Shown in pieces: positions 1 to 51,400 of a stretch of DNA of 64,000 bases. The DNA comes from a virus (taxonomy: Duplodnaviria > Caudoviricetes). Under the pieces are notes generated by a model. It saw only the letters and a list, made by a program, of their open reading frames with translations, was not told the DNA's origin and ran no database searches. The stretch lies in the IMG/VR virus record IMGVR_UViG_2548876794_000003, positions 64,001-128,000 of that record. One strand, 5' to 3'. The number at the start of each line of letters is the position of its first letter. Position 1 is the first letter of the stretch. The position numbers were made by a program, and so were the translations under genes.

Positions 1-208
1 CGTTTTCAAGAACCACCTTGCGAATTGTTACGCCGTCTTTTACTGCGCGGAATACTTCTTCAAGGTACGCTTTGATTTTGTTACCTTTAGCTTTTGGTAA
101 CAGGTTTACTGCTACAGTTGATAGTTCTGATTTAACGTAGTTTACTTCTGGTAATGCTAATACTGTTGTTGCTGCTTCTGTTACTGTTGCTTGTGTAGAT
201 GTTTTCAT
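1..208 (-). CDS. hypothetical protein, N-terminal part (runs off the window edge)
   Basis: ATG at 208 with SD AGGAG upstream; open frame MKTSTQATVTEAATTVLALPEVNYVKSEL... to the edge; not in the ORF track. Confidence 0.7.
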   Translation of the reverse strand, partial: MKTSTQATVTEAATTVLALPEVNYVKSELSTVAVNLLPKAKGNKIKAYLEEVFRAVKDGVTIRKVVLEN

Positions 209-33200: not shown

Positions 33201-36200
33201 CCGTTGGTGGTCGTTCGGTTCATTAAATGAATTTAGAGGTAGCAAGGTTCAATACTGGCAACCTAATTTGTTACGTCGAGTAACCAGCGACTATCACGAT
33301 GAATCCTTGTATGATGGATTTCTTGATAAATGGAGCCACAGCTGGATGCCAACACCAACCAACCCACTATCTCCATTAAATGCGTTGATGGATCCATATT
33401 GGTTGGAAAACAAACATTACGAAGATCGACCGTATATGGTGTCGGGAAAAATGTTCACCGAAGAAACACCATGGGGACCACTGTTAAATGCGACAGTTGG
33501 TAACGTATTGAAACCACAAATACAGATGCACCAAGAACGATTGAACAGCGATTATGTCGATGTACGTGCCATTATTGAACGACGAAACAGAGAAACGATG
33601 GAGCGAGCTAATGGTGAAAATCGCAACCTTGCTCGATTCAAAGATGGTGCGATTGAAGCGGTAAACTTCACATCATATGATGCACCCACTGAATCACAAC
33701 GCATTGTTCGTATAAATCAAAGCAATGGTCAATCTGATGTCACAGCGATGAACTACGGTGCATTCACTGGCGTTACAACAGGTGAAGCGTATATGCGTCA
33801 AAAAGCAATTAGTGAAGATGCTGCAGGTGGAGGAGCTACTGGCGAATTCTTAACAGGCGTAGCAGAAGGAACCAACCAAAGGCTAGGTAACTCTGCATTG
33901 ATGGACTACGGTAGCAAAGCTGGCGGTGTTATGGACCTAATGAGCTCGATTGGCAACGGTGGCGAAATCAGTGTCGGTACTGGTTTAAGCTTCGCAGATC
34001 GTGCGGAAATTGAAGGTGCTGGTGGCAATGTTGTCGCAAAACTATTTTCAACACTACGCCGCGAAAGTAATGAATCCATGAATATCGTCAGTGACTTGAA
34101 CTATAACACGCTAATGAATACTCGTTCCTATCGGCCTAGTAACTCACACGTACGAGAGGGTGGTGTTGTAACAACAGAATCACTTTACAAAGCGAGCGCT
34201 CGTTTCGGTGATGGTATTTTGGATAATAAAGAAGCAATATCCGATTTGAAAGGCTTATCTGGCGGGGATGACATGATTGGCGAGCTGGCTTACTCTGCTC
34301 GTTTCATTACAGGTATTTATGGTTACGGTTCATTCTTAGCTGCAGGGGGTAGCGCTAAGAACAAAGTATCTGACGCAAGTGACATGACCAGTCCTATTCG
34401 TAGCTTCTGGGATGCAAACCTTGGCGGTGTTGGTGGTAACTATCTTGAAATCTTCCGTCGTTTTATTCCATCAAATAACTTCTTAGAAAACAACTTTAAT
34501 CCATTGATGAATACTATGCCCGACTGGATGCCAGATAAATATCGTTTTGGCGATCCGTATACAGCGCTCCCTAAAGGTGAAATGCGTATGCCGGGTAAAG
34601 GGTATGAATCACTTAACGAGCTGCATTCTGATCAGTATGGACGTTATGGAGCATTTGACCGATACAAAATACTTTCGGATATTTCGCCCGGTTCAGAAGA
34701 GTACAAGATTTGGCGTGATATTGCGAAGGAAACGGTCTCTAGTCCCGAACTAAAAGAAGAGATGGACCGTATTAACGATCGTGTCAAAAAGCAAAACGAG
34801 AACTATGACTTCTTCGATTATCAATTTTTAGGAAAATCCACTCGTAAAGAGAAAGTGCAAATTTCCGAAGTAATCGACAACAACTTCTTCAAAGTAGCAG
34901 GGGATGACAAAACATACAGATTAGCTGGTGTGTCGGTCACAAATAAAAACAAAAAAGACGACGCATTATCTTTAACTGATGGCACACGCGCAATTGACCA
35001 ATTCCTTGCACCAGGTCAAGAAGTCGTGATTTCACGAGACAAAGATACATTCGACGGCACCGACCAACAAAGCGGCGCTGTTAGTGCGGCGCTATTCATT
35101 AACGGTAAATCTGTTGGTAAAGAATTAATGGATATGGGGTATGCTGAAAAACGTGGTGACACGTCCGCTGCAGCTGCAGACAGTGTTTATTCTGCCACAC
35201 AGATTGCGCGTGGTAAGGCGTATGAAGCAATCGCCCATCTACCTATCCCTGTTTTTCAACAAAAATTCATGAAAGTACGAAATCCATTAGAATCGTATAA
35301 ACAAGAATTGGTGTACGGTACAAACTATACAAGTTGGAATCGCCCAATCGACAGTATCTTACTACCTGCTTTTGAACGTTCATTAATGAGTGACGGCGAA
35401 GTACTAATAGGAATTGGCGCAGCCGTAGCGAATCATCTCACTTATAAAATGACAGATGATAAAGCAAGCCGAGCTGTTGCCAATGTTGCGATGGCACTAT
35501 CTAATCGTGGTGCATTCATTGGTGGATTCTTAGCTAAAGGATTGAGCATACCAAACTCGCAAATTCGTAAAGCAGCCTTTGTTGGTGCTGGTGCGCAAGT
35601 TGCTGGCTACCTTTACACTCGTCAAGACCAACCGCTTCAAGAAGGCGTAATGGGAGGACTATTAGGTATGGGTGTTGGTCACTTATTGAAAGATATAGGC
35701 ATAAGAAAAGGCGGAGCAATTGGTGCCGCTACAGGCTTCCTTTTCGGTGGTATGAGTTCATCTGCTTTGAGTGACGACGCTTATGGCTTTGGCAACAAAT
35801 ACATTCCAGAACGAACTCGTGAAACTTGGGATATGCGTGAGTACTATGACCGCTTAGAATATGTTAAATACTCTGGTCTATTTGAAAAGGCTGCGCGTAA
35901 AGCGAAGCATAAAGAGCATATGGATATTGGGAAACTCGTAAAAGATTACGAGAAGCAGCGTGAAGAAAACCGTAAAGTAAATGAGCAACTTGGAGAATAT
36001 CGTCAAATCATCATGCAAGCTTACGCTCCGGGAAGTCAGCGTCGTGACCAACTGTTGAATGAAATTGATGGCAAGATGAATGTATTGAAAGAATCAGAAT
36101 TCAACATTGCAGTAGGCGACTACGCGAAATCAGCATTGATTTATAAACAAGCGATGGACTCTACCATCTATGGTCTAAAAGACGATGCTACGTGGTCTCA

Positions 36201-36729
36201 AATTGTACGTGCTACACCGACCAATGAGCGTGATCATTTTATGGCCTTCATGAAAGAAGCTAATCCTAAAAAACGTAAAGAGATATTAAAATATGTCTCA
36301 CCTTACGAAGCTAAGGTCTTGAAAACCGCTTGGGGTATGGAGACTGAAAAACAAGAATCGAATAGCTCTTACTTTGAACATCACCGTATGCCAGGGGCAA
36401 CATGGAGTGGGTGGCGTCCAGACAAAGACTTATCGGACATTCAAGTAAAAACTATACATAATGAAGGCCGATTGCTTTCAGACTTCGGATTCTTTGAATC
36501 ACAGCTACGTGATCCAGACGTTATCCGAGCAGACCAAGCTTCGCCTAATCAACCCGGTAGCGGCTTCCTACAGACGAAAATGGCAATGATTGCGACATTA
36601 AAAGGATATGGGCTAACTAATGTAAACGTAAACGTTGAGCCTAAAAAGGAAAGTGGTATGGAAGTTATCGCAAATGTGGCGAATATTACACAATACAATA
36701 TCCATAACGCTTTAACAAATTTACTATAA
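30283..36729 (+). CDS. giant virion protein (tape-measure position) with SNase-like OB domain and Gly-rich hydrophobic segments
   Basis: 2148 aa after the chaperones; EVIDNN...YRLAGV...INGKSVGKELMDMGYA near 34850-35150. Confidence 0.6.
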   Translation: MEDKLREEKQQSPFDHIVSYGTAALSLGFGAAVFNKEGGLKMVANASTVLKRATGDLQEQFAQVDRSNFTTKDLKNLYNRAFHDQTGGFKGAKKYIDEGHNAPSLRVDGSSGVLNSLRQVENKLATFENDAKNGFIERTVLRPLANKHNDRYKFEAVEDKKRLDQLIYFMNKNISNKMAIYKKADSLKIANKMGGRSQIDSIYEELKSIKTAKEKSYTVDKEFDQKILSDLREKAYDINALERTHGTIRKPDKMLSPEQMVTVKDVLDNPELYRESMLSRRVKGSKEPQVMPAIQYLQEKMQDFTNRGEGERFGQLLMDRSVLRRDIKTNEVYSLKDFHDLVANPIDEFGTTMIGKILKVFDVKKRFEQPSFLRINPGPQTMDALLASSEGSKTASINNTYFRLYDRTYRQTNDGLEEVEALRDSYLVSKNGTVRSLYGDMIGDRGHRTTDSKWRNALDIGKTSGITFFDMIGNISEYGGSNTNPRVAIESLVKNGLDNLSELATAKQTYKDAAERLKVVNASTTVTDEEKAALYAMRDAGFETIDKYVEQSRTVYRFYDKNAQASNNDTIRRLLNTGGFDKSAEDMLKMLNQDDESLLQNIVTGYNDFNKDNSAFLNKNVLSTMRRYVENPKTALDHVSIKNDSQMTGKLFGTENRSSNFIDELRLEIEKEAYMRQARHVRTDDGQVNIRGLSDLIGGSGAQYDQVRNAQNVADFATFQSLTGVYKDATDNKSVQESADMAEQAIKLFARREGDDQRNDISERLVNNVLNKTNKFETSYDIHMQQENIVEGFGNDAWIHMNKAISPMDLLRNLNDKEFRKSFVKQFVAGRNDMENVTTATMMPYFFLNRLNDPLEKIGVGLSSEYRGSSVDLMRGIVMKRALPIAMGITGYNYMNDFSQATTGVGITESFLSNAANIDLGMRGVADITGVSDWLKDERALNPIAQYLFGEEYMDKDERADYYQNGYSAMRKGRWWSFGSLNEFRGSKVQYWQPNLLRRVTSDYHDESLYDGFLDKWSHSWMPTPTNPLSPLNALMDPYWLENKHYEDRPYMVSGKMFTEETPWGPLLNATVGNVLKPQIQMHQERLNSDYVDVRAIIERRNRETMERANGENRNLARFKDGAIEAVNFTSYDAPTESQRIVRINQSNGQSDVTAMNYGAFTGVTTGEAYMRQKAISEDAAGGGATGEFLTGVAEGTNQRLGNSALMDYGSKAGGVMDLMSSIGNGGEISVGTGLSFADRAEIEGAGGNVVAKLFSTLRRESNESMNIVSDLNYNTLMNTRSYRPSNSHVREGGVVTTESLYKASARFGDGILDNKEAISDLKGLSGGDDMIGELAYSARFITGIYGYGSFLAAGGSAKNKVSDASDMTSPIRSFWDANLGGVGGNYLEIFRRFIPSNNFLENNFNPLMNTMPDWMPDKYRFGDPYTALPKGEMRMPGKGYESLNELHSDQYGRYGAFDRYKILSDISPGSEEYKIWRDIAKETVSSPELKEEMDRINDRVKKQNENYDFFDYQFLGKSTRKEKVQISEVIDNNFFKVAGDDKTYRLAGVSVTNKNKKDDALSLTDGTRAIDQFLAPGQEVVISRDKDTFDGTDQQSGAVSAALFINGKSVGKELMDMGYAEKRGDTSAAAADSVYSATQIARGKAYEAIAHLPIPVFQQKFMKVRNPLESYKQELVYGTNYTSWNRPIDSILLPAFERSLMSDGEVLIGIGAAVANHLTYKMTDDKASRAVANVAMALSNRGAFIGGFLAKGLSIPNSQIRKAAFVGAGAQVAGYLYTRQDQPLQEGVMGGLLGMGVGHLLKDIGIRKGGAIGAATGFLFGGMSSSALSDDAYGFGNKYIPERTRETWDMREYYDRLEYVKYSGLFEKAARKAKHKEHMDIGKLVKDYEKQREENRKVNEQLGEYRQIIMQAYAPGSQRRDQLLNEIDGKMNVLKESEFNIAVGDYAKSALIYKQAMDSTIYGLKDDATWSQIVRATPTNERDHFMAFMKEANPKKRKEILKYVSPYEAKVLKTAWGMETEKQESNSSYFEHHRMPGATWSGWRPDKDLSDIQVKTIHNEGRLLSDFGFFESQLRDPDVIRADQASPNQPGSGFLQTKMAMIATLKGYGLTNVNVNVEPKKESGMEVIANVANITQYNIHNALTNLL

Positions 36730-36754: not shown

Positions 36755-36837
36755 AAGCGAAACTATTTCATTTTGTAGATAATAGGATAAAATACAGGAT
36801 GCATTTTAAGATGCACTATTTAAAAAGGAGGGTTTTG

Positions 36838-39800
36838 ATGGTACAAGAATCATTTTGGGAAAACAGTTCCATTAAACGATTTAATGGAAAGCGACAGAAA
36901 GCATTGATTCAAGCTCGTTCAGAGAAGTCCGCACAGGATGCACTCGGCAACACACAAGCTGGTTACAAGGCTTTAGTAAACGAACACATGAAAGCGACTA
37001 GCTTTATGTATGCCAACCAGATTAAGGATGTTGTGTTAGATAACAAGTCACCTTATAAATTCTTAATGAACACTGGTAAAACAGCATTAAAAGAAAATCC
37101 AGATGTGCTTAATTCATATGCAGATTTCTTCAATGCAGCAGCGTCCACTTTTACAGTAAAGGAGAAAAGCGGACAGAAGTTCATGGCTGAAAACGTAGAG
37201 GTCAACAAGATTTTTACGATTAATAACCAATCCCGAGGTACAGAGACAGTTTCACTTAAAGATGAAGAAGCGGCATGGAAACGTATGCAGAAAGGCGCTT
37301 ATACCGTATTTGACTTTGAAACGTTCGGTGGGCGCAATGCGTTCGGTGTGCAAACATTGGACCAACTTACAGAATATAGTTTCGAAACCTTTGACAATAT
37401 TAAAGCGAAGAAGTCGTCGAATCGTATCGAGGGCGTTGTTGGGATTACCGATGCGAAGAAAGATGAATTTATCAAAAAATTCATTGGTGGCTCACGAGAC
37501 ATACAGGACACACGTAATTTAAATGGTGGATTAATTGACTTCACTCGCTTCACTGAATTAGAGCAAATTCAATTGAATACTTTAGCTCGTATGGGTAGTA
37601 AAGAAACAACAATTTCAAATGTGGACGAACAATTCAAGGATGGTTTTAACGGGCGCTATCGCGTAACTAAAACAATCGCCAATGAAGATGTAGAAATTTC
37701 AAAAGAGAACGTACTGCGTGGGGTTGAACGTCTACATGATATTGGTACTGTACAGCGCGCAGGTTCAGTGAATGGCTTACAAGTTTGGGAGAAAGATTTA
37801 GCTGATGCGATGTCAATTGCAACGAAAGGCGACCATGTATTAACTGGTCACAACGTAGCGCAGGCCGACGTTCCTTGGTTTAACCAAACATTAACTCGTG
37901 GATCGAAGCCATTTAGGGACTATTACTTTAAAGAGTTGCAAGGCGAGTTGGTTAAAACAACTGGAGGAGCTGTATTTGATTTACTTCCACTTGCACGTAT
38001 GGCCGACTTGAATGGCGCACTCTCTCGTGAGATTGAATCAAATCCAAACGCTCAGAAGCGACTTGGCGAAATGGGTTCTACTGCATTGCAACAAGAAACA
38101 TTGGTTGCAACGACACTATCTAAAAACGTCATCGAAAATACGACGAACGCACCACATACAGCTGCAGAAGATACCCGCCTATTTAATGAGATTATTCGAG
38201 GGGGGCGCATCAATTCTTCTGATAAAGAAACTCTTGTCGAAAAAGCTTTCCGTATGGCTAAAATGAATATGACAAACGAAGCGATACCTTTGACAGCTGC
38301 TCCATCTGAACAGCAAGTGAAGGAATCTAATGGCACAACGAAAAATATTGTAATGAACGCACGAAAAGGTCTGTTCAATTATAAAGGTTTATCTGGTGTC
38401 ATTGGTTATAATGTGGACCAGATTGATGGACGTATCCGTACTTCTAATGGATATGAAATTTCTCCAGATGGCTCAGTTAAGAGTGGATTTGGTGATGCTA
38501 TCATCAAGAAAGATGTCAGCTACGTTGCACAAGGCTTACAGAAATTAACGACAGGCAATGACGATGGCATGCTAGACATCATGAAGCGTATGGGGAAAAC
38601 CGACGCACATATGGCAGAAGGTGAGCTTTACAAGCTGGTTCTTTCTCCAGTACGTGAGGGGAACATTGAACCTAGCGCTAGTACGGCATCTGAAAAAACG
38701 AACATGAAGATGAATATGCCTGTAGCTCTGCTAGGTTCCCGCGATGAAATTCAACGTTATCTAAATGGCAATATGATTGCCTTTGCTAATGCGACCGAAC
38801 AATTGGACGGCAGCGTCAAGTTAGATCCGATTGAAAGTGGAATGAAGGAACTGGCGAATTACAACACAGTTACACATAAAGTAGAAGAAACGACGCCTTT
38901 AGACGTCATTAAACGCGGTGAAAAGAAAGCATTGAATGATTCATTTAACCGTAGTATCACTGAAAGTGAACTGCCGAAGATTGAGCGATACATGAAGTTC
39001 AGCGACACTGTAAAAGAATTTGCGAAGGAAAAACATATCGACATTGGTTCAGCTCGTAATGCTGTGATGGATGGCGCTATGGAAATCGCTTATCAAGTTT
39101 CTCGTGGTCGAACAATTACGAAGGATATGCAAGATATGGTTGGGCTTGATGCCTACAATATTCTTTCCAATAACGGAAAGCATGCACTTGATTATCGTTC
39201 ACTCGACAAGGCTGCCGCTTCACTAGACTTTATCGAAAGCGCACGCGCACCATTAAATCAACTGATTCAAGGGATTAAAGGCAAAAAGTTAGGCTCCTCA
39301 AAAGAAGAGCAGTTCGTATTCAAACAAGTGATGCAAGGAATTACTGCAGAATTGAATGATAGCTTTGTGCAAGCGAATGATCCGAAATTCAAAGCAGCAA
39401 ACAAACCATACATAAGTGTCCCTTCATACGAAAAGAATGTCATTCAATTATCTCGCCCAAGCTCGATGCGCGAGAAGAATGGTCGTGTAATGGGGCTTGA
39501 TACGCAAGAGAAAATGCTGCGTATCAATTTAGATGACTCACCAGAAACAAAACTGATTAACGCTGTGACAAAAACACTTCGTCGTAAAAGCGACGGTGCA
39601 ATCAAGAGTAGATTACTTTCACTAGCGGAGGAAAATAACATCGCATTAGATGGCACAAGTGAAATGAATCGTTATCAAGTAGCTCAAACTATTGTTGATA
39701 AGATTCACACGCAGCGTAAAGTCGATCCGCTTCTATTCGCACAAAGCGGTGTGTCAGCGAACGACTTTTCTAAAGGATCAGTAATACTTAGCAGTGAAGC

Positions 39801-42800
39801 ACATGCAGATAAGATTTCCTCTTACATTGACGACTACCTATCAAAATACCAGAAGGGGACGGTTGTCGATCTAAATCATTACTTTACAAAGTCGGGCGCA
39901 CTTAATAAGAATACGTTGATCAATGACGTTGTTGACAACTTCTTAATGGACTCAAATTACAATTTAAAAGACCATGGTTTTAATGATGAACAAGTTAAAT
40001 TTCTGCAGGATTCACGTAATCTTCGCCGCAAAGATTATACGAAATATGCGGAGGAGCTAATCAACGGTGTCCATAAGTCAGGCGCAAGCTTAGTATTCGA
40101 TGCAGATAAAGGCATCTTCGGTATGACTAGAGGTGGAGAGTACACAAACCTAGCCAATATCGTAGCGCGTGACCGATTCCATAATGGTGTGTTCTATACG
40201 CAAGTCGGCAAAAACCGATTACGCACAGGTACTTACTTAGGAATGTTTGGCGCCGGTGACAAAGATGAATACGCTTTAAGTGATGTAAAAGCTGTGTCTG
40301 GACTCGGAAAATCAATGGATGCTGCGCCAGGGAATCTGGACTGGAGTATTAAACGAGCAATCGAGAATGACGATGATCCGACGAAGAGTGTGGAGCGATG
40401 GTTAAAAAATATTAATAGTTCATTGCGTGAAGGTGCAAGTGTTGATTATTTCAATGAGAAAGATATGAAAGCCCAAGGGCAATTGAATATCTCTAAGTTG
40501 ATAGATAATCTAGGCAAAGTAAAAGGCATTGAGAACATGACTGCTGACGACGAAAGTGAAATTAAAGAACTTATTTCAAGAGCTCGCAAGGACAATTTCA
40601 GTTTTAGTAAGATGACCGATTCTACAAATATGTACATGCAGAAATCAATTAGTCCATTGCTACAATTCCTAACACAGGGCGTGAAAGACGAGTGGGTAAA
40701 AGACTCTGTAAAACGTATCGGAAACCGCGTGAAATCGAGCGCCAATGAAAAAGGGAATTATGGCGTAATTGACTTTCAAACAGAACTTGAAATGTTCAAT
40801 AATGCTTCTCGTGGTATTGATGCGCAAAACAGTTTTATTTCATTTGATGAAGATACAGCGCGTAAGGCCCTATTAACACCAGATGAATATACCGGTGAAT
40901 CGCTTGATAAGCGTGTGGGGATTGGTTCCAACTTGCGTACAGAATTAGGGGCTGCTAGAGACAACATGCTTTCAGAGGAACACACCCAAAAACGCCGTTC
41001 ATCATTTGAGCTTCAACGTGCTGCCTACTCACCTGCAGAGCTACATATGAAACTAAAAGAGGCTTATTTAGCAACAGACGATCAAGCGGAACGCACATCT
41101 ATTCAGAAACTAATGAATATCGGTAACGTGACAGAGGGGGCTGCTGTGATGAACTCACGAGTAGCCGATGCGATTATTCAAGGGTATGACAAACAGAAAA
41201 TAGATTTCTCAAAAGACCTGTTCTCACAAGAATTGAGCGCTGACGTAGAATCTATGACAAAAAAGGAATCGAAAGCCTATAAGAAAAGGATGGACAACAT
41301 CTCAAAAATGGCTCCTGTGTTTAAAGACAAGGGCAATCGCGGTTTCGATTTTAATTACGGAAAAGGTTACTATGTACGTCATGGTGAAACGCTCGCAAAT
41401 GTTCGTTCCGAATACGGCAACAATGTGTCTCCAGTAGCAGCGAAGTACGATGGCTTTGCTCGTTTCGGCTTGTTCACACGAGATGGTGCTCTTGTTTCGG
41501 CAAAAGATGCACAGGAGTTTCTACGCGAACAAGCTCGTAAAAAGCAAGTAAATATCAGTAACATTCAAGAGATGATTGATTTCGCTAAGAATTACTACGA
41601 CACAAAAATGTATGTTGATAAGCTAGACATGACAACATATCGTAAAATCCAAGAAGATAATCTTGAAAAACATATGACAAGTTTTACTTATCAATCATTA
41701 GGCGCCTTAGATGACCACAGTAAACCGTCACAAGGAATTGGAGCAGCATTAGATAACTTAGGCTTAAACCATTTAAAAGGTCGTACGCTTCGTCCAGAAT
41801 TCTTTAACGAGCTACTGTCTGGTGAAGCTTATGACAGTGGTGTACTAAAGACTGCAGCAAAAGGCGGCATGGGTTATCAAAAAGCAATTCAATCGGCTGG
41901 CTTTAAAGATGAAAGTGAATTCAAGCGTCAGCTAGAGAAGGAGCGTCACTTAGCCGGTGACATCCTGCAACAAGTAACAGGAGCAGACGCAATCGTTCAC
42001 TCGGATGATGTAAGCCACAAAAACGCTGGTGCTCGTATCAAATCTGCAATTAATGATATGCACTACAACCAATTAAACGCAGTCATGGACGAGCAAGGCT
42101 TGGCACGAGCTACGCCAGAAGCTATCCGAGAAGCGTCTCAACGAGTCGTTGATGCAGTGGGCGATGCCTTCGAAATCAACGGAAAAGATGGATTGTTTGT
42201 AGATAAAAATAACCGTATAGGATTGACTGGTGGCTTCAACTACTACAACGGCGATGGCGTAAATGTAAACCGGTTAAAAGAAGCATATGATGCGATGATG
42301 CCTGGCACTGATAAACCAGAAAATCAATTTGATAACATCGGGGCTTCTAACGGTAAGGTATCACGCCATGGTTACAATCTAATTAACGACACAACCAACT
42401 TCCAAGGTACAGGACGTACAGAAGTATTGGATGACACAGAGATTAATCGTAATAAAATAGCGATGAAATCAGGATTAAAAATGACTGACCGAGAATTGAA
42501 TATGTTAGAGTTACAACGATACGATAAAGATGAATTAAGCTCTATTCGTTCCGCAATGAATGATGACGCACTATTCAAACGTGCCTTTGGCCATGTATTG
42601 AATGACAATATGGAATTAGCCGACGGCGCGCAAGACATGAAAGTACTTGGACGATATACCGACGAAATCCGTCTAAACCAATTTGCTTCTGCGGGAGATG
42701 CATTATTGCTAAATGCTGACGGTAGCCAAGCGATGCAAAATGTCGAGAGCAACCTCATTAAGTCAGCTAATGCGCTACAAAAACAAAGTGGCGGTGCCGT

Positions 42801-45429
42801 TTCGTTAGAATCAGCAAAACAATATCACTCTGTTGTTAGTAACACGCAAGCGATGCGGTTCAACAATGGCACATTGTCCTTGAATGATTTATTAGAAGAA
42901 GGTAAATCTACTGCCGATAAAAAAATGAACTTCAAAGTAGTTAGCATCGGAGACCTAACTGTATCAAACGGCAACGATGGTGAGATCATTATGAAGGATG
43001 GTAGCTCTGTTTATAACCAAAATGTAGTGATTGATATGAAAGATAAATATTTAGGTGGCGTACCAGAGCGCATGGGTAATCGTTACTTAGCTATTGGTGC
43101 TGTACCGACCTCTGTAATTGGAGATGAAGTGTTAGACAAAAATCCTCACAAAACAATCAATTCAATCGTTTCAGCTCGACAAGCAATTATTGATGGCGAT
43201 GCTGGAACAGCCGAAGCAATTGAACGGAAGAAAGAATTAATCGTTGAAAAAGCAGGGCAATTGAACGATGACTTGTCAGAAGTAGTATTCGGCAAAAAAG
43301 GTGCTATCGGGCAACTAAGCTCTTATCGTGCGCAGCACTCTGCATTCGGTAAGGCGATGCTGCAAGATACTGCTCATGCACTGAATACATACAGTGAAGG
43401 TATGTTCCCGATGCTAGATAACGTTGAAATCGACGGCAAAAAAATCCGAGACCATTATGCGCAAGGTGGTTTAATGGATGTCAAAGTATTCGGTATGGGG
43501 CATGCAGAACGACTTGGCTTATTTGACCAAGAGTATCTGGACCACATCGGCTCTACAAAAGAAGATGTCATCAAGCAATTAGAAGGTGGCGTACTTGGTT
43601 TATCTCAACGTCATCCGGCTGTATACGAAGGTACAAAGCGTTCAACATACTTTGTACTGAACCGTTCGCTAGGCGATGAAGTCATCGAAAGTGCTGCGGG
43701 TGCATTGACTGCTAAAACCGATGCCGATGGTGATAGCCCTGGTAGTGAGCTTTCATCTTACACAGATAAGAAAACAGGACGCCGAGTGGACTCATTAGAG
43801 TATGCATTAAAAGGAGGAGCTGCCGGTGGGCAATTCTCTGCAGACATTAACGAAGCTTTCCAACAGCAAAAATCAAGTAACTATATCAACGCGTATGTTC
43901 GTAACCCACACTTCCAATCGAAGCTAGATAAAGCGAACGCAGAAGCATATGATATTATTCGTGACATTGACTTAGGCGAACGAGGTGAAGCAACCGCTGC
44001 TATGCAAGATGTAGCATGGGGTAAAGACGGCTCGGAGTTGGGCAAACTCCGTCCATCGTTACCACACTTATGGAATGAAAAAGAACGTGCAGAACTAATG
44101 GACGCTAAATCAGACCTACGCAATAAAGCATTGGCTTCTTACGCAACTGAACATAACTTATCGACAGCAGACGCTCTTACTCAACTACGTGGATCTGAAG
44201 AGGGTGGCAGAAGTTTTGAACTACACGAGGACTTTATCTCTCGACAAAAACAAGTAATTCGAGATACTGGTGATGCTGCGCAAGCGGATCTATACGAACG
44301 TGCTATGATTTATGAAGATAAATCCGACAGTTTCAAAGCCGCACAGATGGGTGCATTAAAACGACAAAGCGCTGGTGAAATTAACCTTAGCATGTACAAG
44401 GCTCGTAAGCTGCGTAACCTCTCTATTAACAATGGTTATACGAATGATGAATCACGATTCCTTGAGCATGTATTCGAAGCTTCCGAAGAAGCCTTCCTAT
44501 CTCCGAAGCATAGTGATAAAATCATCGTTGAAAATCCAGACGTGATGGACCAATTCAAACGAGCGTGGGGCTCTGCTACCGGTACACCTCAAAAAGGTGA
44601 TGAAGCGGGGACAGACCTACTGAAACAATACTTCCGCGACCAGACATCAACTCGTATGCGTTGGGAGAGTGAATCTAAGGAAGTTGTTGCGACGAAGATG
44701 GACCGCGCTGCGGATATGATTCAAGAAATCTTTAATAAGTCGGAGAACGGAAAAGATTTCAATATGTTCTTAGGTGCCGTTGGTCAATGGAAAAACGGTA
44801 TTCCAACATCACGAATTGAAGATGCAATGATTGGTATGAACTCATCATCTATGATGTCGCAAGTATATGGTGCGCTCTCAGAAGGCAATGGCGACCTTGG
44901 ATGGGAAACCCGCGACCTTCAAATGCGTGAGCGTATAGAAGGAGCTTTCAGTGACTCAAGACCGCTTCAAGGTAACGACTATATGCCACCAACAGTCCAG
45001 TCGCTTCGCAGCGAGTTTTCTGATAAAATGGGTGGCGTTAAAAACCTACTAAGTAAAGTTAGTGGTAAACAAGCGGTATTTGGTATTGCTGGTATGGCAG
45101 GAATGTCAATGCTAGGCGCATTCGTTGGCGGTAATCCTTCTGAGCCAACAGGACAACATGCAGCGCAAGCCCCATCAGCCGGTGGGTATGAATCAATGCC
45201 GTTATCAGACGGCACTGGATCGGTAAGCCAAATTCCTTCTGGTCAAGGTTATGTCGTGAATGTCAACGCACAATCACCAAAAGGACAAGCACATGCACAA
45301 GAAGCAATTCGACAAGCCGTTCGACAAGCAAGCGGCGGTTCTGTCAATATCTCTATGACAACGCGAAACGAATACAACAACTTGGACAACGAAAGCGTCA
45401 CAAGTATCCTGTCAAATGCGTTTAATTAG
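36838..45429 (+). CDS. single-chain two-barrel (beta+beta'-like) RNA polymerase with N-terminal DEDDh exonuclease, probably virion-packaged (2863 aa)
   Basis: Exonuclease: FDFET / GHNVAQAD / HTAAED. RNAP motifs in order: GNVTEGAAVMNSR, K-x7-K, DAIVHSDDVSHKNAG, GLKMTDRE, FGKKG...YRAQHSA, QRHP, TDADGD, ALKRQSAGEI. SD AAGGAGG before ATG 36838. Confidence 0.8.
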   Translation: MVQESFWENSSIKRFNGKRQKALIQARSEKSAQDALGNTQAGYKALVNEHMKATSFMYANQIKDVVLDNKSPYKFLMNTGKTALKENPDVLNSYADFFNAAASTFTVKEKSGQKFMAENVEVNKIFTINNQSRGTETVSLKDEEAAWKRMQKGAYTVFDFETFGGRNAFGVQTLDQLTEYSFETFDNIKAKKSSNRIEGVVGITDAKKDEFIKKFIGGSRDIQDTRNLNGGLIDFTRFTELEQIQLNTLARMGSKETTISNVDEQFKDGFNGRYRVTKTIANEDVEISKENVLRGVERLHDIGTVQRAGSVNGLQVWEKDLADAMSIATKGDHVLTGHNVAQADVPWFNQTLTRGSKPFRDYYFKELQGELVKTTGGAVFDLLPLARMADLNGALSREIESNPNAQKRLGEMGSTALQQETLVATTLSKNVIENTTNAPHTAAEDTRLFNEIIRGGRINSSDKETLVEKAFRMAKMNMTNEAIPLTAAPSEQQVKESNGTTKNIVMNARKGLFNYKGLSGVIGYNVDQIDGRIRTSNGYEISPDGSVKSGFGDAIIKKDVSYVAQGLQKLTTGNDDGMLDIMKRMGKTDAHMAEGELYKLVLSPVREGNIEPSASTASEKTNMKMNMPVALLGSRDEIQRYLNGNMIAFANATEQLDGSVKLDPIESGMKELANYNTVTHKVEETTPLDVIKRGEKKALNDSFNRSITESELPKIERYMKFSDTVKEFAKEKHIDIGSARNAVMDGAMEIAYQVSRGRTITKDMQDMVGLDAYNILSNNGKHALDYRSLDKAAASLDFIESARAPLNQLIQGIKGKKLGSSKEEQFVFKQVMQGITAELNDSFVQANDPKFKAANKPYISVPSYEKNVIQLSRPSSMREKNGRVMGLDTQEKMLRINLDDSPETKLINAVTKTLRRKSDGAIKSRLLSLAEENNIALDGTSEMNRYQVAQTIVDKIHTQRKVDPLLFAQSGVSANDFSKGSVILSSEAHADKISSYIDDYLSKYQKGTVVDLNHYFTKSGALNKNTLINDVVDNFLMDSNYNLKDHGFNDEQVKFLQDSRNLRRKDYTKYAEELINGVHKSGASLVFDADKGIFGMTRGGEYTNLANIVARDRFHNGVFYTQVGKNRLRTGTYLGMFGAGDKDEYALSDVKAVSGLGKSMDAAPGNLDWSIKRAIENDDDPTKSVERWLKNINSSLREGASVDYFNEKDMKAQGQLNISKLIDNLGKVKGIENMTADDESEIKELISRARKDNFSFSKMTDSTNMYMQKSISPLLQFLTQGVKDEWVKDSVKRIGNRVKSSANEKGNYGVIDFQTELEMFNNASRGIDAQNSFISFDEDTARKALLTPDEYTGESLDKRVGIGSNLRTELGAARDNMLSEEHTQKRRSSFELQRAAYSPAELHMKLKEAYLATDDQAERTSIQKLMNIGNVTEGAAVMNSRVADAIIQGYDKQKIDFSKDLFSQELSADVESMTKKESKAYKKRMDNISKMAPVFKDKGNRGFDFNYGKGYYVRHGETLANVRSEYGNNVSPVAAKYDGFARFGLFTRDGALVSAKDAQEFLREQARKKQVNISNIQEMIDFAKNYYDTKMYVDKLDMTTYRKIQEDNLEKHMTSFTYQSLGALDDHSKPSQGIGAALDNLGLNHLKGRTLRPEFFNELLSGEAYDSGVLKTAAKGGMGYQKAIQSAGFKDESEFKRQLEKERHLAGDILQQVTGADAIVHSDDVSHKNAGARIKSAINDMHYNQLNAVMDEQGLARATPEAIREASQRVVDAVGDAFEINGKDGLFVDKNNRIGLTGGFNYYNGDGVNVNRLKEAYDAMMPGTDKPENQFDNIGASNGKVSRHGYNLINDTTNFQGTGRTEVLDDTEINRNKIAMKSGLKMTDRELNMLELQRYDKDELSSIRSAMNDDALFKRAFGHVLNDNMELADGAQDMKVLGRYTDEIRLNQFASAGDALLLNADGSQAMQNVESNLIKSANALQKQSGGAVSLESAKQYHSVVSNTQAMRFNNGTLSLNDLLEEGKSTADKKMNFKVVSIGDLTVSNGNDGEIIMKDGSSVYNQNVVIDMKDKYLGGVPERMGNRYLAIGAVPTSVIGDEVLDKNPHKTINSIVSARQAIIDGDAGTAEAIERKKELIVEKAGQLNDDLSEVVFGKKGAIGQLSSYRAQHSAFGKAMLQDTAHALNTYSEGMFPMLDNVEIDGKKIRDHYAQGGLMDVKVFGMGHAERLGLFDQEYLDHIGSTKEDVIKQLEGGVLGLSQRHPAVYEGTKRSTYFVLNRSLGDEVIESAAGALTAKTDADGDSPGSELSSYTDKKTGRRVDSLEYALKGGAAGGQFSADINEAFQQQKSSNYINAYVRNPHFQSKLDKANAEAYDIIRDIDLGERGEATAAMQDVAWGKDGSELGKLRPSLPHLWNEKERAELMDAKSDLRNKALASYATEHNLSTADALTQLRGSEEGGRSFELHEDFISRQKQVIRDTGDAAQADLYERAMIYEDKSDSFKAAQMGALKRQSAGEINLSMYKARKLRNLSINNGYTNDESRFLEHVFEASEEAFLSPKHSDKIIVENPDVMDQFKRAWGSATGTPQKGDEAGTDLLKQYFRDQTSTRMRWESESKEVVATKMDRAADMIQEIFNKSENGKDFNMFLGAVGQWKNGIPTSRIEDAMIGMNSSSMMSQVYGALSEGNGDLGWETRDLQMRERIEGAFSDSRPLQGNDYMPPTVQSLRSEFSDKMGGVKNLLSKVSGKQAVFGIAGMAGMSMLGAFVGGNPSEPTGQHAAQAPSAGGYESMPLSDGTGSVSQIPSGQGYVVNVNAQSPKGQAHAQEAIRQAVRQASGGSVNISMTTRNEYNNLDNESVTSILSNAFN

Positions 45430-45440
45430 GGGGAACTATT

Positions 45441-48400
45441 ATGGCATCTACAAAGACTGCTAAAGAATTAAAAGAGCTTTATGGCACGATGAATAAAGAA
45501 AATCTCATTCTAACAGATGAAGATTTCTTCTTGCCGTCCATGGGCGACATGTACGTCAATTCAGTCGATAGCGCACGATTAAATGATTTTGCCGCTTCAC
45601 TGGAAGGCAATGCAGGTAAAGACAAAATGACGAAAGCTTCGTTCTATTTGGAAAATCCATTTGCGAGCGAACTTGGCTTCTATGAAAAGAATCACCTTAT
45701 TTTTGTAAAAGCAAAGCCATTGATTACAACGCAAGATGTACTTGCGGGAAAAGTCGATGGAGACACACTGACCTTCAAGGTCAGTGCTGTCGTTGGTGAT
45801 GACGATGGCAAAGCAAAGTCAAAGATTCAAGAAGAGGTAAAACGCGGTACTGAAAAAATCATCAACGCTGTTAATGACAAGGCTTCATTAGATTTGATGG
45901 ATCGACTAGAGAGCTTAGGATTAGATTTAAGTGATCCTAAGAATAGCGAGTACAAAAAATATTTACGTGAATCAAGTGAGCAAGAATTTAAAATTCGTTT
46001 CCTTGGAATCAATGCACCAGAGGTTTCAAAATGGACACATATGTCGAATATTAATGCGGATTATTTAAAAGTCGAATTTAAAGAATACGGAGACATCAAG
46101 AATGATGAAGCACATTATTATTGCCGACGCTACGAAGGCCGCAAAGATAAAGAAGTAATTGCCTTCGTAACATTGAGTGATGCAATGAGCCATGACGACG
46201 GAATTGACTTGGGTGAAATGTTTATCGAAACGAATAGCGAATATAGTCCATTAACAAAGAGTCGTATTAAATCAGAGAAAAAATTAGACTTCTATTATTT
46301 AAATACAGTAGGTGAGACTGAGAAGAAACGTCGTGAACAGGGTGATTTAGCGCAACGACGCGTAATCAAAGCAATCAATGCTTCTGCAGATGGTTATGTT
46401 TACCTAATGTTAAACACTTCTACTTTGAAGATGGCCACAGACCGCTATGCTTCTATCTTCGATGATGTGACAGCACTGAGTAAAGGTCCTATTAATAAAT
46501 TAAAATACATCTTTAGCCAACTTGTTAGCTACAACGATTATTCATATAAAGGCTATAATATGTGGGGAACTGACGCATATAATCGTTTCCTTGGAACACC
46601 ATATGTCATTACAGACGAAGGTTACGTGAACTTAGCTAAATATGTGATTGCTGGTGACGACGAGAAAATGGTTGACGTATTTCCAGACTATGGCGATACA
46701 CCTTGGTCTGGCGTAAACAATAACTATGCCGATAAGTATTTCAATTTAGCCAGTTATGATTTTGACAACTACGCTCTATATGATGCGACGAAGGTTGCTG
46801 GCGATGATATTGATGACCGCAGAAAGGTACAAGAAGAAATCTTCGGTCGTTCATTTGATGAATTGCGAGAATGGACTGTCGGTATTGGTGACACATTCTT
46901 CTTCGTTCCACCAACAAGTATCAATGTCACGAATGAAGTATCGAATGAACGCCTACGCACAATGCGTTCTAAAGGCTCGATGGTTAAAGGTGGCACCAAG
47001 GTAGATAAGTATATCGAGCTGGACTTGTATTTCAATGACGAGCGCGGTATCAATGGCTACCCTTGGGAGACAACTTTACCAAACGGAGATAAAACTACAT
47101 ATTATATGAATGGATTACGTGCTTTAATTTCGCAATTCAAGTTCACGCCATTTCTACCAATTGAAAATCGTTACATTAATCAGATGTGTAATATCGAAGC
47201 GGTCAATTTACTAACGTTAGAAATCTCTACAGTTGAGGGTTTCCCTCGAACATTAGTAGCTCGTGTCGTACTACAAGCATTTGATTGGCGTACTTATATG
47301 CCAGATTTACCGGCAAACATTCAAATGGATGACCAGCAAGATGAAGATGAATACTTCAACATTTTCGCTAAATCAATCGACTACGCTACGATGCGCTGGT
47401 ATTACCAACGTGCTATTCGAAGAGGGAATAAAGTAGATGGTCTTGATGCAAATTCCATTAAATACATAGAAAAAACATTGGGTAGCAATACTGCATTACA
47501 ACCAATGCACTTTGAAGATTCCGGTGTGAAGTTTTACGTTGCAAACGAAGATTACTTGAAGAAAATGCTTCAAGTGAAAATCAATGCACTTGATACGTCC
47601 AAAACATACGCAGTCTTAACAGATCTTGAAAAAGAACTGTTGGTCGACTTAGCTCCTTTAGGCAAAGCTGCAGATGATGCGCTTACTGACAAAATGATGG
47701 GGCAGTACACAACGAGCTTGATCGATAAATTAAAACCAGCCAAAGATGGCCGCCTACCTGTATTAACTGCAGAGAAAGCAAGCAAAGGGTTGGTTTATGG
47801 AAAAGCGAAACTGGGTTCTCCTAAGATCATGCGAGTTGAAACAAACGGCTTTATTTTTGATGACGAGTACTTCCCAGAATATATGAATCTTGTTCAATCG
47901 AGAATGGTTGACGCATTCAAGGATGTTCAAGGGAAAGAAAAGATTCTAAACGATGTGACACCTTACTACAAAGTAGGAGATGACTACATTACGTTTGGTG
48001 TGTGTCTGGACTTGTATATGCCAGGTTTTACAACACCTGCTCAAATTACAAACCTTATTGCGGAAGCATCTACCGCTACAGGAGTGAGCCGAGATAAATT
48101 TAATTTAGTAGATGAAAAACTATATATCAGTTATCGCGTTGAATTAAAAGATAAAGTTGGTGTAAAAACAGGTATTGACCGATTCATTACAACGGATTAT
48201 GACGGAGTTATCCAATATCCTGCTTTACCAAACACAACGAAGTCGGGCTACGATTATCAGATGTTAGCTTATGCTCAACAATATAAAAAAATCAAAGACA
48301 GCGATGAAGACACCCCGAACGAAGAAGTTGCTGATACAGCGAAGAATGTAGATTACATTAGTCCGTACACTTTGACTTATGATCAATATGAGATGGGCCA

Positions 48401-51400
48401 TGTGACCGTTCAAAATATTTCTGTTAGTACAACGAACAGCTTTATGAAGTATGGACTGAACGGTAGCGAAGGTTACGCCAGCCAGTACATGGGTTCAGAA
48501 GATTCTATTATTGAAATCACGCTTCACTCAATGGATGAATATGCAGTGGGGATGATTAATCAAATGACGTCGCTTCAAACACGCTACGCTCGTGATTACC
48601 GCTTGATTCTTCCAGCCTGCCCATTCCGAATTGATACAGAACTGACACGAACACTTGGGATTAATGAAATCATTTTAGATAAGGTAGAAGTAAGCACTGT
48701 TGCAGGAGCGCCGGGCTTATACGACATACATATTAGTGCTATCTCAATGGACCGTACTTTGCGTAGCCGAGAAGCATTAAACAAAGTGAACGATTGGACG
48801 AACAATGGTTCTATTGGTAACGATAACGCAACAGAGCTTAAATTGAAGTCTTATGACAATTTAAACGAAACATTGGCTGCGGCAGAGTTATATCCAGACC
48901 TTGAATTGCCAACAGTGAAAGAACTTGAATCGAAAGGATTTAACTTTATTCGTCATGTATTCGACAGAGATCGAAGTTATCCAGATCCCGATTTCTATTT
49001 CGTGTATGGGTACTTACTACAAGCAGACGTATTACGAGATGCTGTTTCACAAGCGTACGAGCAAAGTATTGCTGAGTCTACTTGGACTGATGAATACGGC
49101 GGTTCTGTTGAGCTGGAAACAAATAAGGAATTTGGGTACATCACTAAAAAAGAAGGCAAGAATACGAAAGACTTGCACGAAAGTATTAGTAAAGTTGAGG
49201 CAGCTGCAGATAAATCGAAGAGTGTCACAGAATACGTTAATAGTGGAGAAGCCTTAATTGATATTATCCAGTCTGCAGAGGATGCAGAAGGTTGGAGCGT
49301 TTCACCAAAAATACGTGTGCTAGGAATCGACCAGTATCATCAAGATTTATTGCACAGAGATGATGCAATGAAGAAAGGTAAGACAGGCGAGGAACGACAA
49401 GGCAAGTGGTTATCAGAACGAATGGATGAAGCAAGAGAAGCAAGTAAGCTAATCAAAGCCGCTTTAGATAAACCACTGTCAAGCATTGGTCAAGCACATG
49501 ATGCTCGTAAAGATGATGACTTTACTCGTCGTTTTAGTGACCGCGTAATCAGAGAATGTTTGAACGAGGACTTTGGCGATGCTCTCGCGAAATTAAATTT
49601 CTCTGCAGAAGAATTTACGGACAGCGGATCGCAGACAGCAGATTCATTCATCAAGATTTTAAAATCAATCGCTACAGCATTTAGCAGTAAAAAAGAGTGG
49701 ACTAAGAAGGCCGGTAAAGATGGCGACGCTAATTTTAAATATTTAGGTTACGCAATTGATACTGATACGAACAGCTCTGGTAATCGTTCTGCCGCTTCGA
49801 TTGATGATGCTGTTGAGAATGGCGTAGAGTTTTCTGTTTTCGGATTAAAAATGCTGAAACGCAAAAAGCTTAAAAAGCTTGAAGTATATGGCGAAATCCA
49901 TAAGCGTGTAGACGATGATGTAAGCGTGAATATGAACTATTACACGTTAGATCCGTACTACCGTCGTGAAGGTGTAACAGCAAAAGAAATTGAAGAGTAC
50001 AAGCGCGCGTGTTGTACAGATTACACTGTTGCAGCGCAGGCTTTCGTTCGTAATACGATGCTATTCCTTGCAAAAGCAATCGACGAATACATCTTCCCTA
50101 ACATTACATTTGACTTGATGGCCAGTGAACTTCGCGAAGCAATGAAGAGTGTAGAGAATAAGAAACTAGCAGATGAAATCAATGATTACGAAGATTTCCT
50201 TAATGACGAGGATAGACCAATCAATGCTGGTAAGTTATTTATCTGTTCATTAGCTGCAGCGACCAATTCACAAAAAGTTCTGGAGTACGTGAAGCAAGGT
50301 CGATATGAGGACTTAAATCAAATGGTTTACCAGTCTATTAATGAAAAAGGTACGGAGCTTTACGACAATAGCGAAGCAATCTTCTATCGTAAATTCTTCC
50401 GTAAACTAGTTGATTACAAAATGATTGATAACCTCGGAGCAGTAGGGAACGACGATAAGAACATCGTAACGGATCGACGTCGTGAATATCGTGAACGTGT
50501 TTACATTGAAGCGGCGAACAATCCTAGCGAATACATTACGCACTCGTTCCACGATATGACTGTCAATGATATGCGTGGGCGTATGGCTAGAGCATTTCCA
50601 ACGTTCTATATGTTGTTAGTAGATGAAGGGCGACGAATTGGTCTTTGGAAGCTACATGATAACTTCTATAACATCAACTCTATTTCTGAAATCGCAATCA
50701 CAAAATCTCGTAAGAATCCTGCAGACACGATTAAGATAACGATGTCCAATATGTTCCATACATATACAACGGATGACGAAGATATAAAAGTAAATTTTGA
50801 ATATGACTATCGAGATGTATTCAATTCTATCTTTAACTCCGAAGCTTACTACGAAAAAGAAGAAGCGAAGCGAATGGGGCAGCAACCATTGAATCGCGCA
50901 AAATTAAAACCTGGCATTCGTATGCATGTGCGTATGGGCTACAATTCAAACGCAGCCACTTTACCAATCATGTTCAACGGTAGAATCGCTGAGGTGTCAG
51001 CTGGCGAAACAGTTGAAATTGTAGGGCAAGGTGATGGTGTTGAGCTATTAAATACGATTTCCGTTCAAGAGTCTAAGTCCCTTAACCAAGGGAACGGTAA
51101 GCTATGGCTGTACTCAAAAGTAGATGGCCAACAAACGCCAAAAGAAATATTCGACAAAGTACTATGTAATAAAGGTACGATGACGTCGCGCGCCTTAGAT
51201 ACTGTATCGAATGGTTACTATCGTTCATACAATGAATACGGAATTGTTCACTTTGGCGATCCACGTTACAACGTTATATTCGAAAATGGTGAGCCATCAC
51301 AAAATATCTATGAAGCGACTACTCAACCTAAATGGTATAAGGAGCAATCTAAATCAGCAGAATATGGTTTAGAGGAGCCACCACAGATCAGCATCATGAC

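Follow-up and report, generated by a model that had tools for sequence, protein, structure and literature searches.

The locus described here raises the question of whether a giant protein encoded in the tail module of a tailed phage (Duplodnaviria; Caudoviricetes) contains a complete RNA polymerase (RNAP). It lies in a stretch of 64,000 nucleotides (nt), hereafter the window, which corresponds to positions 64,001–128,000 of the IMG/VR record IMGVR_UViG_2548876794_000003 (178,960 bp, 78% complete by CheckV). A previous sequence-only reading of the window had recognized nine short motifs in the order expected for the beta and then the beta' subunit of RNAP, and had suggested a highly divergent single-chain two-barrel RNAP that is packaged in the virion. 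On the combined evidence of sequence conservation and a structural model, the polymerase core of this protein is very probably an active two-barrel nucleotide polymerase. The broader interpretation is that the protein comes from a 0305phi8-36-like jumbo myovirus with a genome of ~180–250 kb and a Bacillus-type host, that amino acids (aa) ~1440–2600 form a complete and catalytically intact single-chain two-barrel RNAP, and that this enzyme is delivered with the virion for early transcription; taken as a whole, with all of its conditional steps included, we regard this interpretation as fairly probable.

All nine motifs were located within one plus-strand open reading frame (ORF), 36799–45429 (2876 aa), and each converts exactly to the nucleotide position that had been assigned to it. 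The true start of the ORF is probably the ATG at 36838, because it is preceded by an AAGGAGG ribosome-binding site (36825–36831) and lies seven bases downstream of it; the public-database copy of the protein is likewise 2863 aa long. Residue numbering throughout is counted from ATG 36799. The ORF and the nine motifs are as follows:

36838..45429, plus strand: polymerase giant ORF, 2863 aa from ATG 36838 or 2876 aa from ATG 36799
41122, plus strand: GNVTEG, aa 1442
41641, plus strand: RKIQEDNLEKHM, aa 1615
41986, plus strand: DAIVHSDDVSHKN, aa 1730
42469, plus strand: SGLKMTDRE, aa 1891
43288, plus strand: FGKKGAIG, aa 2164
43606, plus strand: QRHP, aa 2270
43717–43734, plus strand: TDADGD, aa 2307–2312
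44353, plus strand: ALKRQSAGEI, aa 2519
44509, plus strand: His of LSPKH, aa 2571

A word-based search for homologues returned three proteins that are 29–36% identical to the query, and a HMMER profile search of 1.8 billion representatives found 146 homologues, nearly all of which are 2650–3550 aa long and collinear with the giant protein over their full length. By this sequence criterion, the polymerase-giant family comprises at least 146 sequence clusters (50% identity). Two-barrel RNAPs share an invariant set of residues that includes an Asp triad, an Arg-x-Pro motif, two Lys residues eight positions apart and one barrel-B Asp (PMC2919709). The Arg-x-Pro motif precedes the triad by ~35 residues and corresponds to R446/P448 of Rpb1 and R425/P427 of E. 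coli beta', the Lys pair to K979/K987 of Rpb2 and K1065/K1073 of E. coli beta, and the barrel-B Asp to D837 of Rpb2 and D709 of QDE-1. In a core alignment of 116 family sequences, which show 16–38% identity to the query and a mean column identity of 11%, seven of these eight residues are near-invariant and the eighth is a conserved Glu. D2308 is present in all 116 sequences, D2310 and D2312 in 115 each (with G2311 in 100 and Ser in the others), R2271 and P2273 in 115 each, K1616 in 115 and K1624 in 114, while the acidic residue of barrel B is Glu (E1446) in 107. E1623, next to the second Lys, is found in 114 sequences. Strong conservation was also observed for H1740 (114/116), G2526 (115/116) and K2570 (116/116), as well as for residue 2529, which is Asn or Asp in 112 sequences; K2166 is present in 92. 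SGLKMTDRE is moderately conserved (K in 75, R in 92 and E in 56 of the 116), and at the site equivalent to E. coli beta' N458, 66 sequences have Lys and 26 have Asn. Judged by these alignments, no residues of the protein are better conserved than those of the two-barrel RNAP catalytic signature, and conservation marks H1740 as clearly functional.

Most of the earlier motif assignments stand up in the family alignment. DxDGD, on whose conservation among homologues the earlier proposal had been staked, is the most conserved feature of the family. The likeness drawn to E. coli beta K1065/K1073 also holds, since the E. coli pair was confirmed as K-x7-K and the spacing of K1616/K1624 is identical, and so do both figures given for the distance from the Arg to the Asp (37 residues here versus 35 between R425 and D460 of E. 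coli beta'; 38 in most family members). Within GNVTEG, the Glu corresponds to the conserved E1446 and the first Gly is not conserved. The proposed trigger-loop-like His is not borne out, as H2571 is variable (Lys in 35, His in 29, Asn in 27 and Ser in 18 of the 116 sequences) and the adjacent K2570 is invariant.

To place these residues in the genome as a whole, the published RNAP motif filter [RK]xPx{20,100}DxDxD (PMC10770324 supplement) was applied to a six-frame translation of the 179-kb record. It matches three sites only, namely the polymerase ORF, an RdRP-like candidate upstream (RdRP, RNA-dependent RNA polymerase) and a Pol III alpha gene, and the motif set is therefore more than a product of chance. 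A rival view is that the protein serves only as a tape measure or in another structural role, with motifs that came together by chance or a fold that has survived from a polymerase as a dead relic. The position and size of the gene do resemble those of a tape-measure gene (PMC2147016), and searches of the whole protein against Pfam, PHROG and the sequences of the Protein Data Bank (PDB) gave no useful match, with no Pfam RNAP domain at threshold. However, a relic would not be expected to keep the three Asp residues, RxP, both Lys residues and the bridge-helix Gly at 98–100% in 116 sequences that are 16–38% identical, and the confident model described below matches RNAPs over ~1150 residues. 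A purely structural role is contradicted by this conservation pattern, and we consider it very improbable.

The polymerase core was modelled with AlphaFold (AF2; aa 1430–2600) from a 68-sequence alignment, which gave a predicted local distance difference test score (pLDDT) of 86.1 and a predicted template modelling score (pTM) of 0.84; a model from four sequences (pLDDT 48) was not used. The features of the core assigned from the model and the alignments are listed below:

41125..41688, plus strand: barrel B (beta-like double-psi barrel), aa ~1443–1630, with conserved E1446, K1616 and K1624 and covered by five single-chain RNAP alignments
41134–41136, 41644–41646 and 41668–41670, plus strand: barrel-B residues E1446, K1616 and K1624, respectively
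41311–41496, plus strand: all-beta insert between the barrel-B halves, aa ~1505–1566
41701..42867, plus strand: lineage-specific inter-barrel region, aa ~1635–2023, with H1740 (nt 42016–42018) and a KGxKxxDRE motif (42469–42495)
42868..43332, plus strand: clamp-like region resembling the N-terminal part of beta'/Rpb1, aa ~2024–2178, with the K2166 motif at nt 43288
43333..43803, plus strand: barrel A (beta'-like double-psi barrel), aa ~2179–2335, with R2271-x-P2273 (nt 43609–43617) and D2308-A-D-G-D2312 (nt 43720–43734)
44275..44433, plus strand: bridge-helix-like helix of 53 residues, aa 2493–2545 (model helix 1064–1116), with G2526 (nt 44374–44376) in AGEINL
44443..44580, plus strand: trigger-loop-like helical pair, aa 2549–2594 (model helices 1120–1165), with K2570 (nt 44506–44508)

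A Foldseek search of the PDB with this model returned RNAP chains for all of the top 50 matches, nearly all of them largest (beta'-type) subunits (E 1e-5 to 1e-3). VIA-align, a structural aligner that does not depend on Foldseek, gave QDE-1 as the best match (Z 10.8–11.1 over 281–316 residues, root-mean-square deviation (rmsd) 3.4–4.2; in the independent ranking, Z 10.8 over 284 residues at rmsd 3.8), followed by P74-26 gp62, a non-virion RNAP of the P23-45 type (Z 9.8), RDR2 (7.5–9.9), a group comprising Pol I, archaeal RpoA', Mycobacterium tuberculosis beta', Pol II/Rpb1 and vaccinia RNAP (8.2–8.9), the non-virion RNAPs of phiKZ and AR9 (8.1), P23-45 gp96 (7.6–7.7) and crAss gp66 (5.8 over 377 residues). 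When the Foldseek list was re-aligned, QDE-1 again had a Z of 11.1 (rmsd 3.4), and 396 chains reached Z>=8. The single-chain RNAPs (QDE-1, RDR2, P74-26 gp62, P23-45 gp96 and crAss gp66) align from model residues 13–15 to ~1167 and thus across both barrels, the beta'/Rpb1/RpoA' chains align from model residues 594–597 (their own residues 12–26) to 1171, including the bridge-helix region, and isolated or designed double-psi barrels align to model residues 750–890 with Z ~6. The bridge helix that had been read at ALKRQSAGEI is a 53-residue helix in the model and contains the near-invariant G2526. A search of the BFVD structure database gave an unnamed phage protein (9e-13), a 'minor tail protein' (1.7e-7) and crAss-like proteins as its top matches. 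The confident model, the RNAP matches over both barrels and the in-register profiles described below bear out the proposal of a single-chain two-barrel RNAP, with the pair of double-psi barrels visible in the extent of the single-chain alignments; for barrel B, this assignment comes from the alignment ranges.

For barrel A, sequence profiles point in the same direction. Eight of the nine best PDB matches of a barrel-A profile built from 115 sequences are largest subunits of RNAPs whose RxP...DxDGD falls into register with that of the family, including phiKZ gp55 (1.1e-3), African swine fever virus RPB1 (4.5e-3), Pol I A190 (0.016) and AR9 beta' (0.05), and D2308-A-D-G-D2312 falls in register with NADFDGD of these phiKZ, African swine fever virus, Pol I and AR9 subunits. 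Scans of the barrel-A region of individual members detected PF00623 in two of them (best 4.5e-4) and LEF-9 in one. PF05183, the RdRP family, was found neither in these per-member scans nor anywhere in the genome at E<=1. The fold thus resembles QDE-1, but membership in the RdRP/YonO (PF05183) family is not supported by the profiles.

In barrel B, the region of K1616 and K1624 (model residues 185–200) forms beta-strands in the confident model. The QDE-1 alignment starts at model residue 15, which corresponds to chain residue 707, so that E1446 (model residue 17) would fall on D709 if the alignment is ungapped, as read from the range ends only. From these range ends and the conservation, we infer that K1616 and K1624 are structurally equivalent to the beta lysines. 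According to Iyer et al. (PMC7824862), a flap-like insert of the sandwich-barrel-hybrid class marks the beta barrels of cellular-type enzymes and is absent from RdRP/YonO; the all-beta insert between the barrel-B halves may be such a flap-like insert as in cellular beta subunits, which we offer as a lead. The region between the two barrels (aa ~1635–2023) is confidently modelled, yet lies outside the coverage of the structural matches, and a profile of this region, comprising the DAIVHSDDVSHKN and SGLKMTDRE stretch, found no RNAP in the PDB, so that the earlier pairing of these two motifs with beta motifs is tentative.

Outside the polymerase core, the giant protein carries three further segments:

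37276..38208, plus strand: DEDDh (DnaQ-like) 3'-5' exonuclease, aa ~160–470, with ExoI D172/E174, ExoII N352/D357 and ExoIII H453/D458
38209..41115, plus strand: stretch of ~950 aa to which no function is assigned, aa ~471–1439, with length and order kept family-wide (hmmalign, 126 full-length homologues)
45046..45426, plus strand: C-terminal module, aa 2750–2876, with a hydrophobic helix of the glycine-zipper type and a conserved tail (Y2818, N2821, N2850)

The exonuclease motifs follow the DEDDh order, with FDFET (D172, E174), then N352...D357 and then H453...D458; among 90 homologues, D172, E174 and H453 are invariant, and N352, D357, D394 and D458 are conserved in >=90%. Among PDB sequences, a profile of this domain detects DEDD exonucleases such as 9mrc (1.4e-5) and E. 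coli ExoI (2e-4), and it also matches RNase T and the exonuclease domains of family-B polymerases. Motifs and profiles therefore indicate a DEDDh exonuclease that is fused in one chain with the polymerase and conserved throughout the family; to our knowledge, such an arrangement has no parallel among virion RNAPs. The stretch at aa ~471–1439 has no Pfam, PHROG or PDB sequence match. In total, at least 1500 residues of the giant protein belong to globular enzyme domains. A Kyte-Doolittle scan found one hydrophobic helix of the glycine-zipper type (aa 2759–2777, nt 45073–45129), and the C-terminal ~130 residues that contain it are the most conserved block of the protein (0.42–0.47 versus ~0.25 elsewhere).

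The presence of a 3'-5' exonuclease in the same chain, which is typical of DNA polymerases and not of RNAPs, leads to the question of whether the two-barrel enzyme has another specificity, such as that of an RdRP, a primase-like enzyme or a DNA polymerase that is proofread by the fused DEDDh domain, by analogy with archaeal PolD. QDE-1, the best structural match, has both RdRP and DNA-dependent RNAP activity, and the prevalence of Lys (66/116) over Asn (26/116) at the position of beta' N458 would also be compatible with such a view. On the other hand, the exonuclease domain lies ~1000 residues away from the polymerase core, the barrel-A profile matches are all DNA-dependent RNAPs, R2271 (equivalent to beta' R425) is near-invariant, and the structural matches listed include no PolD chain versus hundreds of RNAP chains. 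Furthermore, a replicative role of the two-barrel polymerase is unlikely because the genome encodes its own Pol III alpha-type replicase (genome 156055–158961, PF07733 at 1e-67). We therefore consider a specificity other than that of a DNA-dependent RNAP improbable.

A second transcriptase candidate is present in the same genome, while canonical RNAP Pfam families were not detected anywhere in the 179-kb record. Upstream of the tail block, two adjacent minus-strand genes encode proteins of 835 and 759 aa, the first of which ends soon after RSP...DWDMD:

1..208, minus strand: N-terminal end of the first gene of the split RdRP/YonO-like candidate (genes at genome 61701–64208 and 59262–61541, mostly outside the window)

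The nearest ESM-Atlas clusters of the first gene carry PF05183 RdRP (score 0.92, 24/30 matches), although Pfam and PDB sequence searches gave no match and a word-based homologue search returned the query itself only. On this evidence, the gene pair is a candidate non-virion RNAP of the RdRP/YonO type. 0305phi8-36 encodes the RdRP-like orf99 (PMC2147016), and a parallel is known from P23-45, in which a virion RNAP fused to the tape measure is paired with a non-virion RNAP (PMC10770324).

Whether the giant polymerase is itself a virion protein has to be judged mainly from its genomic setting. The gene order in the window is terminase, portal, protease, major capsid protein, a tail sheath of 1012 aa, tube paralogues, three giants and baseplate-J, and the polymerase ORF is the middle one of the three adjacent giants (2148, 2876 and 2724 aa), which agrees with its earlier placement in the tail module; the tube/chaperone genes lie on one side of it and the baseplate hub on the other. 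Its two neighbours are:

30283..36729, plus strand: upstream giant ORF, 2148 aa, positional counterpart of 0305phi8-36 gp145 and WH1 gp096
45441..53615, plus strand: downstream giant ORF, 2724 aa, baseplate hub with cell-wall-degrading domains (PHROG 20474 at 7e-183)

A counterpart of the upstream giant (2124 aa) is present in a Bacillus spizizenii contig. In tblastn searches, the hub ORF matches 0305phi8-36 gp147 ('baseplate hub'), a Moorella phage protein and WH1 gp094, and the Bacillus phages 0305phi8-36, WH1, Edson and KLEB27-3 as well as Moorella phage MTATph1 have distant relatives of both the sheath and the third giant. The polymerase ORF ends 11 nt before the hub ORF starts. Its position would fit a tail tape measure, but this slot is shared by two giant genes; the C-termini of the two upstream giants have a loose NVN...NIS/T pattern in common, for which BLASTP gave no significant similarity.

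The same order of genes in the tail slot is kept in the window, the B. spizizenii contig, WH1 and ME3. Contigs of up to 248,626 bp carry near-identical copies of the protein, and the database copies that were looked up have no product name or are called 'hypothetical protein', some of them on ~236–237-kb contigs of B. spizizenii or B. atrophaeus. A homologue from a cultured phage is gp095 of Bacillus phage vB_BceM_WH1 (2515 aa, annotated as 'virion structural protein'), which was found by profile and synteny and matches both the barrel-A profile (1.2e-16, RYP...KADHDGD) and the exonuclease profile (1e-9). A weaker candidate homologue is Acinetobacter phage ME3 gp36 in the same slot, with REP...DHDQD, a weak profile match and a structural match in BFVD. 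Among 50,697 phage records, tblastn gave no match to either the core or the full-length protein, and no relative turned up when IMG/VR and the GTDB species genomes were scanned. The samples in which the family occurs include manure, food fermentation, faeces, air, soil and wastewater, and in a search of sequencing runs no family-bearing run was recorded as RNA. Our literature search found no paper on the polymerase-giant family or on WH1 gp095.

By analogy with P23-45 gp96 and crAss phi14:2 gp66, the giant protein would be packaged in the virion, most likely built into the lumen of the tail, at the tape-measure position or next to it. At infection, it would be ejected, with its C-terminal helix engaging the membrane, and the polymerase module would then transcribe the first-entering phage DNA independently of the host RNAP; the first transcripts could plausibly include those of the upstream split RdRP/YonO-like polymerase gene. 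The exonuclease might trim or degrade the 3' ends of nucleic acids at entry, which is a guess. A virion-delivered DNA-dependent RNAP for early genes is, on balance, the description of the giant protein that we favour from these analogies.

Several observations weigh against the overall interpretation or parts of it. The counterpart from a cultured phage that was detected in virions by mass spectrometry, 0305phi8-36 gp146 (PMC2147016), has neither DxDxD nor a match to the polymerase profile, so that the presence of the RNAP-bearing version in virions is argued from gene position and from the unreferenced annotation in WH1. A terminator-like hairpin with a T-run (36728–36747) lies right after the stop codon of the upstream giant and 90 nt before the polymerase start, so that the two genes may not share an operon. 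The folded polymerase core of ~1170 residues would have to pass through the tail tube or be stored unfolded in it. With respect to the enzyme itself, its DNA or RNA template and product specificity is not readable from the sequence, the acidic residue of barrel B is Glu instead of the usual Asp, and the barrel-B fold is judged from alignment ranges and conserved residues in the model. A barrel-B profile found no RNAP beta subunit in the PDB and had weak biotinyl/lipoyl matches only (E 0.5–1, from the all-beta insert), and neither hhalign against E. coli RpoB nor Pfam scans of barrel B in individual members gave anything.

The first two of these observations also speak for a real two-barrel polymerase that is not packaged, for instance a late-gene RNAP that is expressed late as a non-virion enzyme and happens to be coded in the structural block, since gp146 of 0305phi8-36, verified by mass spectrometry, occupies the same position without the motif, and the hairpin upstream could mark a separate transcription unit. 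Against such a role stand the constant slot of the gene, flanked by tube/chaperone genes and the hub in all the genomes examined (window, B. spizizenii contig and WH1, with ME3 gp36 in the same slot), its end 11 nt before the hub gene, and the fact that its most conserved block contains a C-terminal glycine-zipper helix like those of tape-measure and ejection proteins. In addition, WH1 gp095 is annotated as 'virion structural protein', the BFVD look-alikes include a 'minor tail protein', and a separate RdRP-like candidate would already fill the non-virion role. We therefore regard a non-virion enzyme as unlikely and retain delivery with the virion as the favoured reading. Within the phage group of WH1, ME3 and 0305phi8-36, sequence comparison suggests that the polymerase module was either lost or replaced in 0305phi8-36 or gained in the lineage of WH1 and the window.

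Delivery of two-barrel RNAPs with the virion has been demonstrated for phiKZ-like phages, where the enzymes are multisubunit, for crAss-like podoviruses and for one Thermus siphovirus. The enzyme of the last, P23-45 gp96 (PDB 8H2M/8H2N; PMC10770324), resembles the protein described here in that a single-chain two-barrel RNAP resides in a giant tail-module protein, a membrane segment follows the polymerase, and the phage has a second, non-virion polymerase candidate. The two match structurally (Z 7.6–7.7 over model residues 13–1164) with no detectable sequence similarity. However, P23-45 is a siphovirus whose RNAP is N-terminal in a tape measure of 5002 aa and is clamp-less, flat and devoid of an exonuclease, whereas the present protein belongs to a contractile tail, has its RNAP in the middle of the chain, and contains a clamp-like region that matches the N-terminus of beta' and an N-terminal DEDDh exonuclease but no metallopeptidase. 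The crAss phi14:2 gp66 (PDB 6VR4) is similar in its length of more than 2000 aa, in the mid-protein location of its two-barrel RNAP, in its place among large genes of the structural block and in having been missed by annotation. It differs in being a capsid-packed ejection protein of podoviruses with DFDxD that is closest to QDE-1, while the protein from the window has DxDGD and a myovirus tail-module location, and its profiles point to beta'-type enzymes and not to RdRPs.

The enzymes of the QDE-1/RDR2/YonO clade, which are the best overall structural match (QDE-1 Z 10.8–11.1, RDR2 7.5–9.9), likewise carry both barrels on a single chain and in this order, with a bridge helix and then a trigger-loop-like element that contains a Lys. 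The giant protein departs from them in its lack of a PF05183 match, in the ~690 residues between its barrels and in the all-beta insert of barrel B, which is absent from that clade (PMC7824862). With the multisubunit beta/beta' enzymes and the phiKZ and AR9 RNAPs, it shares a barrel-A profile in register, an Arg-to-Asp distance of 37–38 versus 35 residues and K-x7-K, and the N-terminal clamp region of multisubunit beta' is matched structurally. Unlike these enzymes, it is one chain and not split into subunits, and the likeness on the beta side was not confirmed by any profile search. The positional counterpart, 0305phi8-36 gp146 (2537 aa, 'hypothetical tape measure protein'), has a similar size and the same slot (sheath, tube, chaperones, giant, giant, hub) and lacks the polymerase features as described above.

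Taken together, these comparisons make conceivable, though doubtful as a joint statement, that the family represents a fused-barrel relative of beta/beta' outside the RdRP/YonO clade. With a beta'-type barrel A and, in barrel B, a flap-like insert, it would then connect multisubunit and single-chain RNAPs as a new, deeply branching lineage. The enzyme would carry a fused DEDDh exonuclease and be delivered through a contractile tail within a tape-measure-like protein of 0305phi8-36-like jumbo myoviruses including WH1, Edson and possibly ME3, and its exonuclease would process nucleic-acid 3' ends, which no virion RNAP is known to do.

Some other features of the genome and its relatives were observed in passing. 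Three paralogues that follow the sheath gene (25014–25649, 25717–26517 and 28207–28818) match PHROG 9206, 'major head protein'; this label appears to be wrong, as the position of the genes and the comparison with 0305phi8-36 gp140/gp141 indicate that they are probably tail tube proteins. The terminase ORF (7949–9217) matches positions 381–612 only of the 807-position large-terminase profile, which fits a gene split by intervening sequences upstream. A search for repeated intergenic promoter-like motifs based on k-mers found only an array of ~15 intergenic copies of a 22-bp repeat with the core TGAATATATTTTGCGC (genome 169782–170554, outside the window), which looks like replication-origin iterons and not like promoters. 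In the ~237-kb B. spizizenii contig, a minus-strand cassette that encodes a RapH_N/TPR protein and a 44-aa YopL_AimP/Phr-like peptide lies between the first giant and the polymerase gene and looks like a quorum-sensing or arbitrium-like insertion within the tail module. In Moorella phage MTATph1, the slot gene CDS0027 (1309 aa) has a DLET motif like that of DEDD exonucleases; a transposase gene and short ORFs come after it, and it may be interrupted.

Precedents for a virion RNAP hidden in a giant phage protein are known from crAss gp66 and P23-45 gp96; what is new here is the setting in contractile-tailed jumbo phages, the mid-chain position of the polymerase, its fusion to an exonuclease and a sequence signature that is beta'-like and not RdRP-like. 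A large family, with at least 146 clusters at 50% identity, is thus present in jumbo myoviruses of Bacillus-type hosts without functional annotation or a describing paper that we could find, and the idea could be put to a direct test with its cultured member, WH1 gp095. The kinship between single-chain and multisubunit RNAPs is a question to which both the fusion with a DEDDh exonuclease and the possible beta/beta'-like affinity are relevant. More generally, the finding suggests that phages with different types of tail have repeatedly hidden their first transcription enzyme in a giant tail or ejection protein, which, if true, would help to explain the apparent absence of RNAPs from many large phages.

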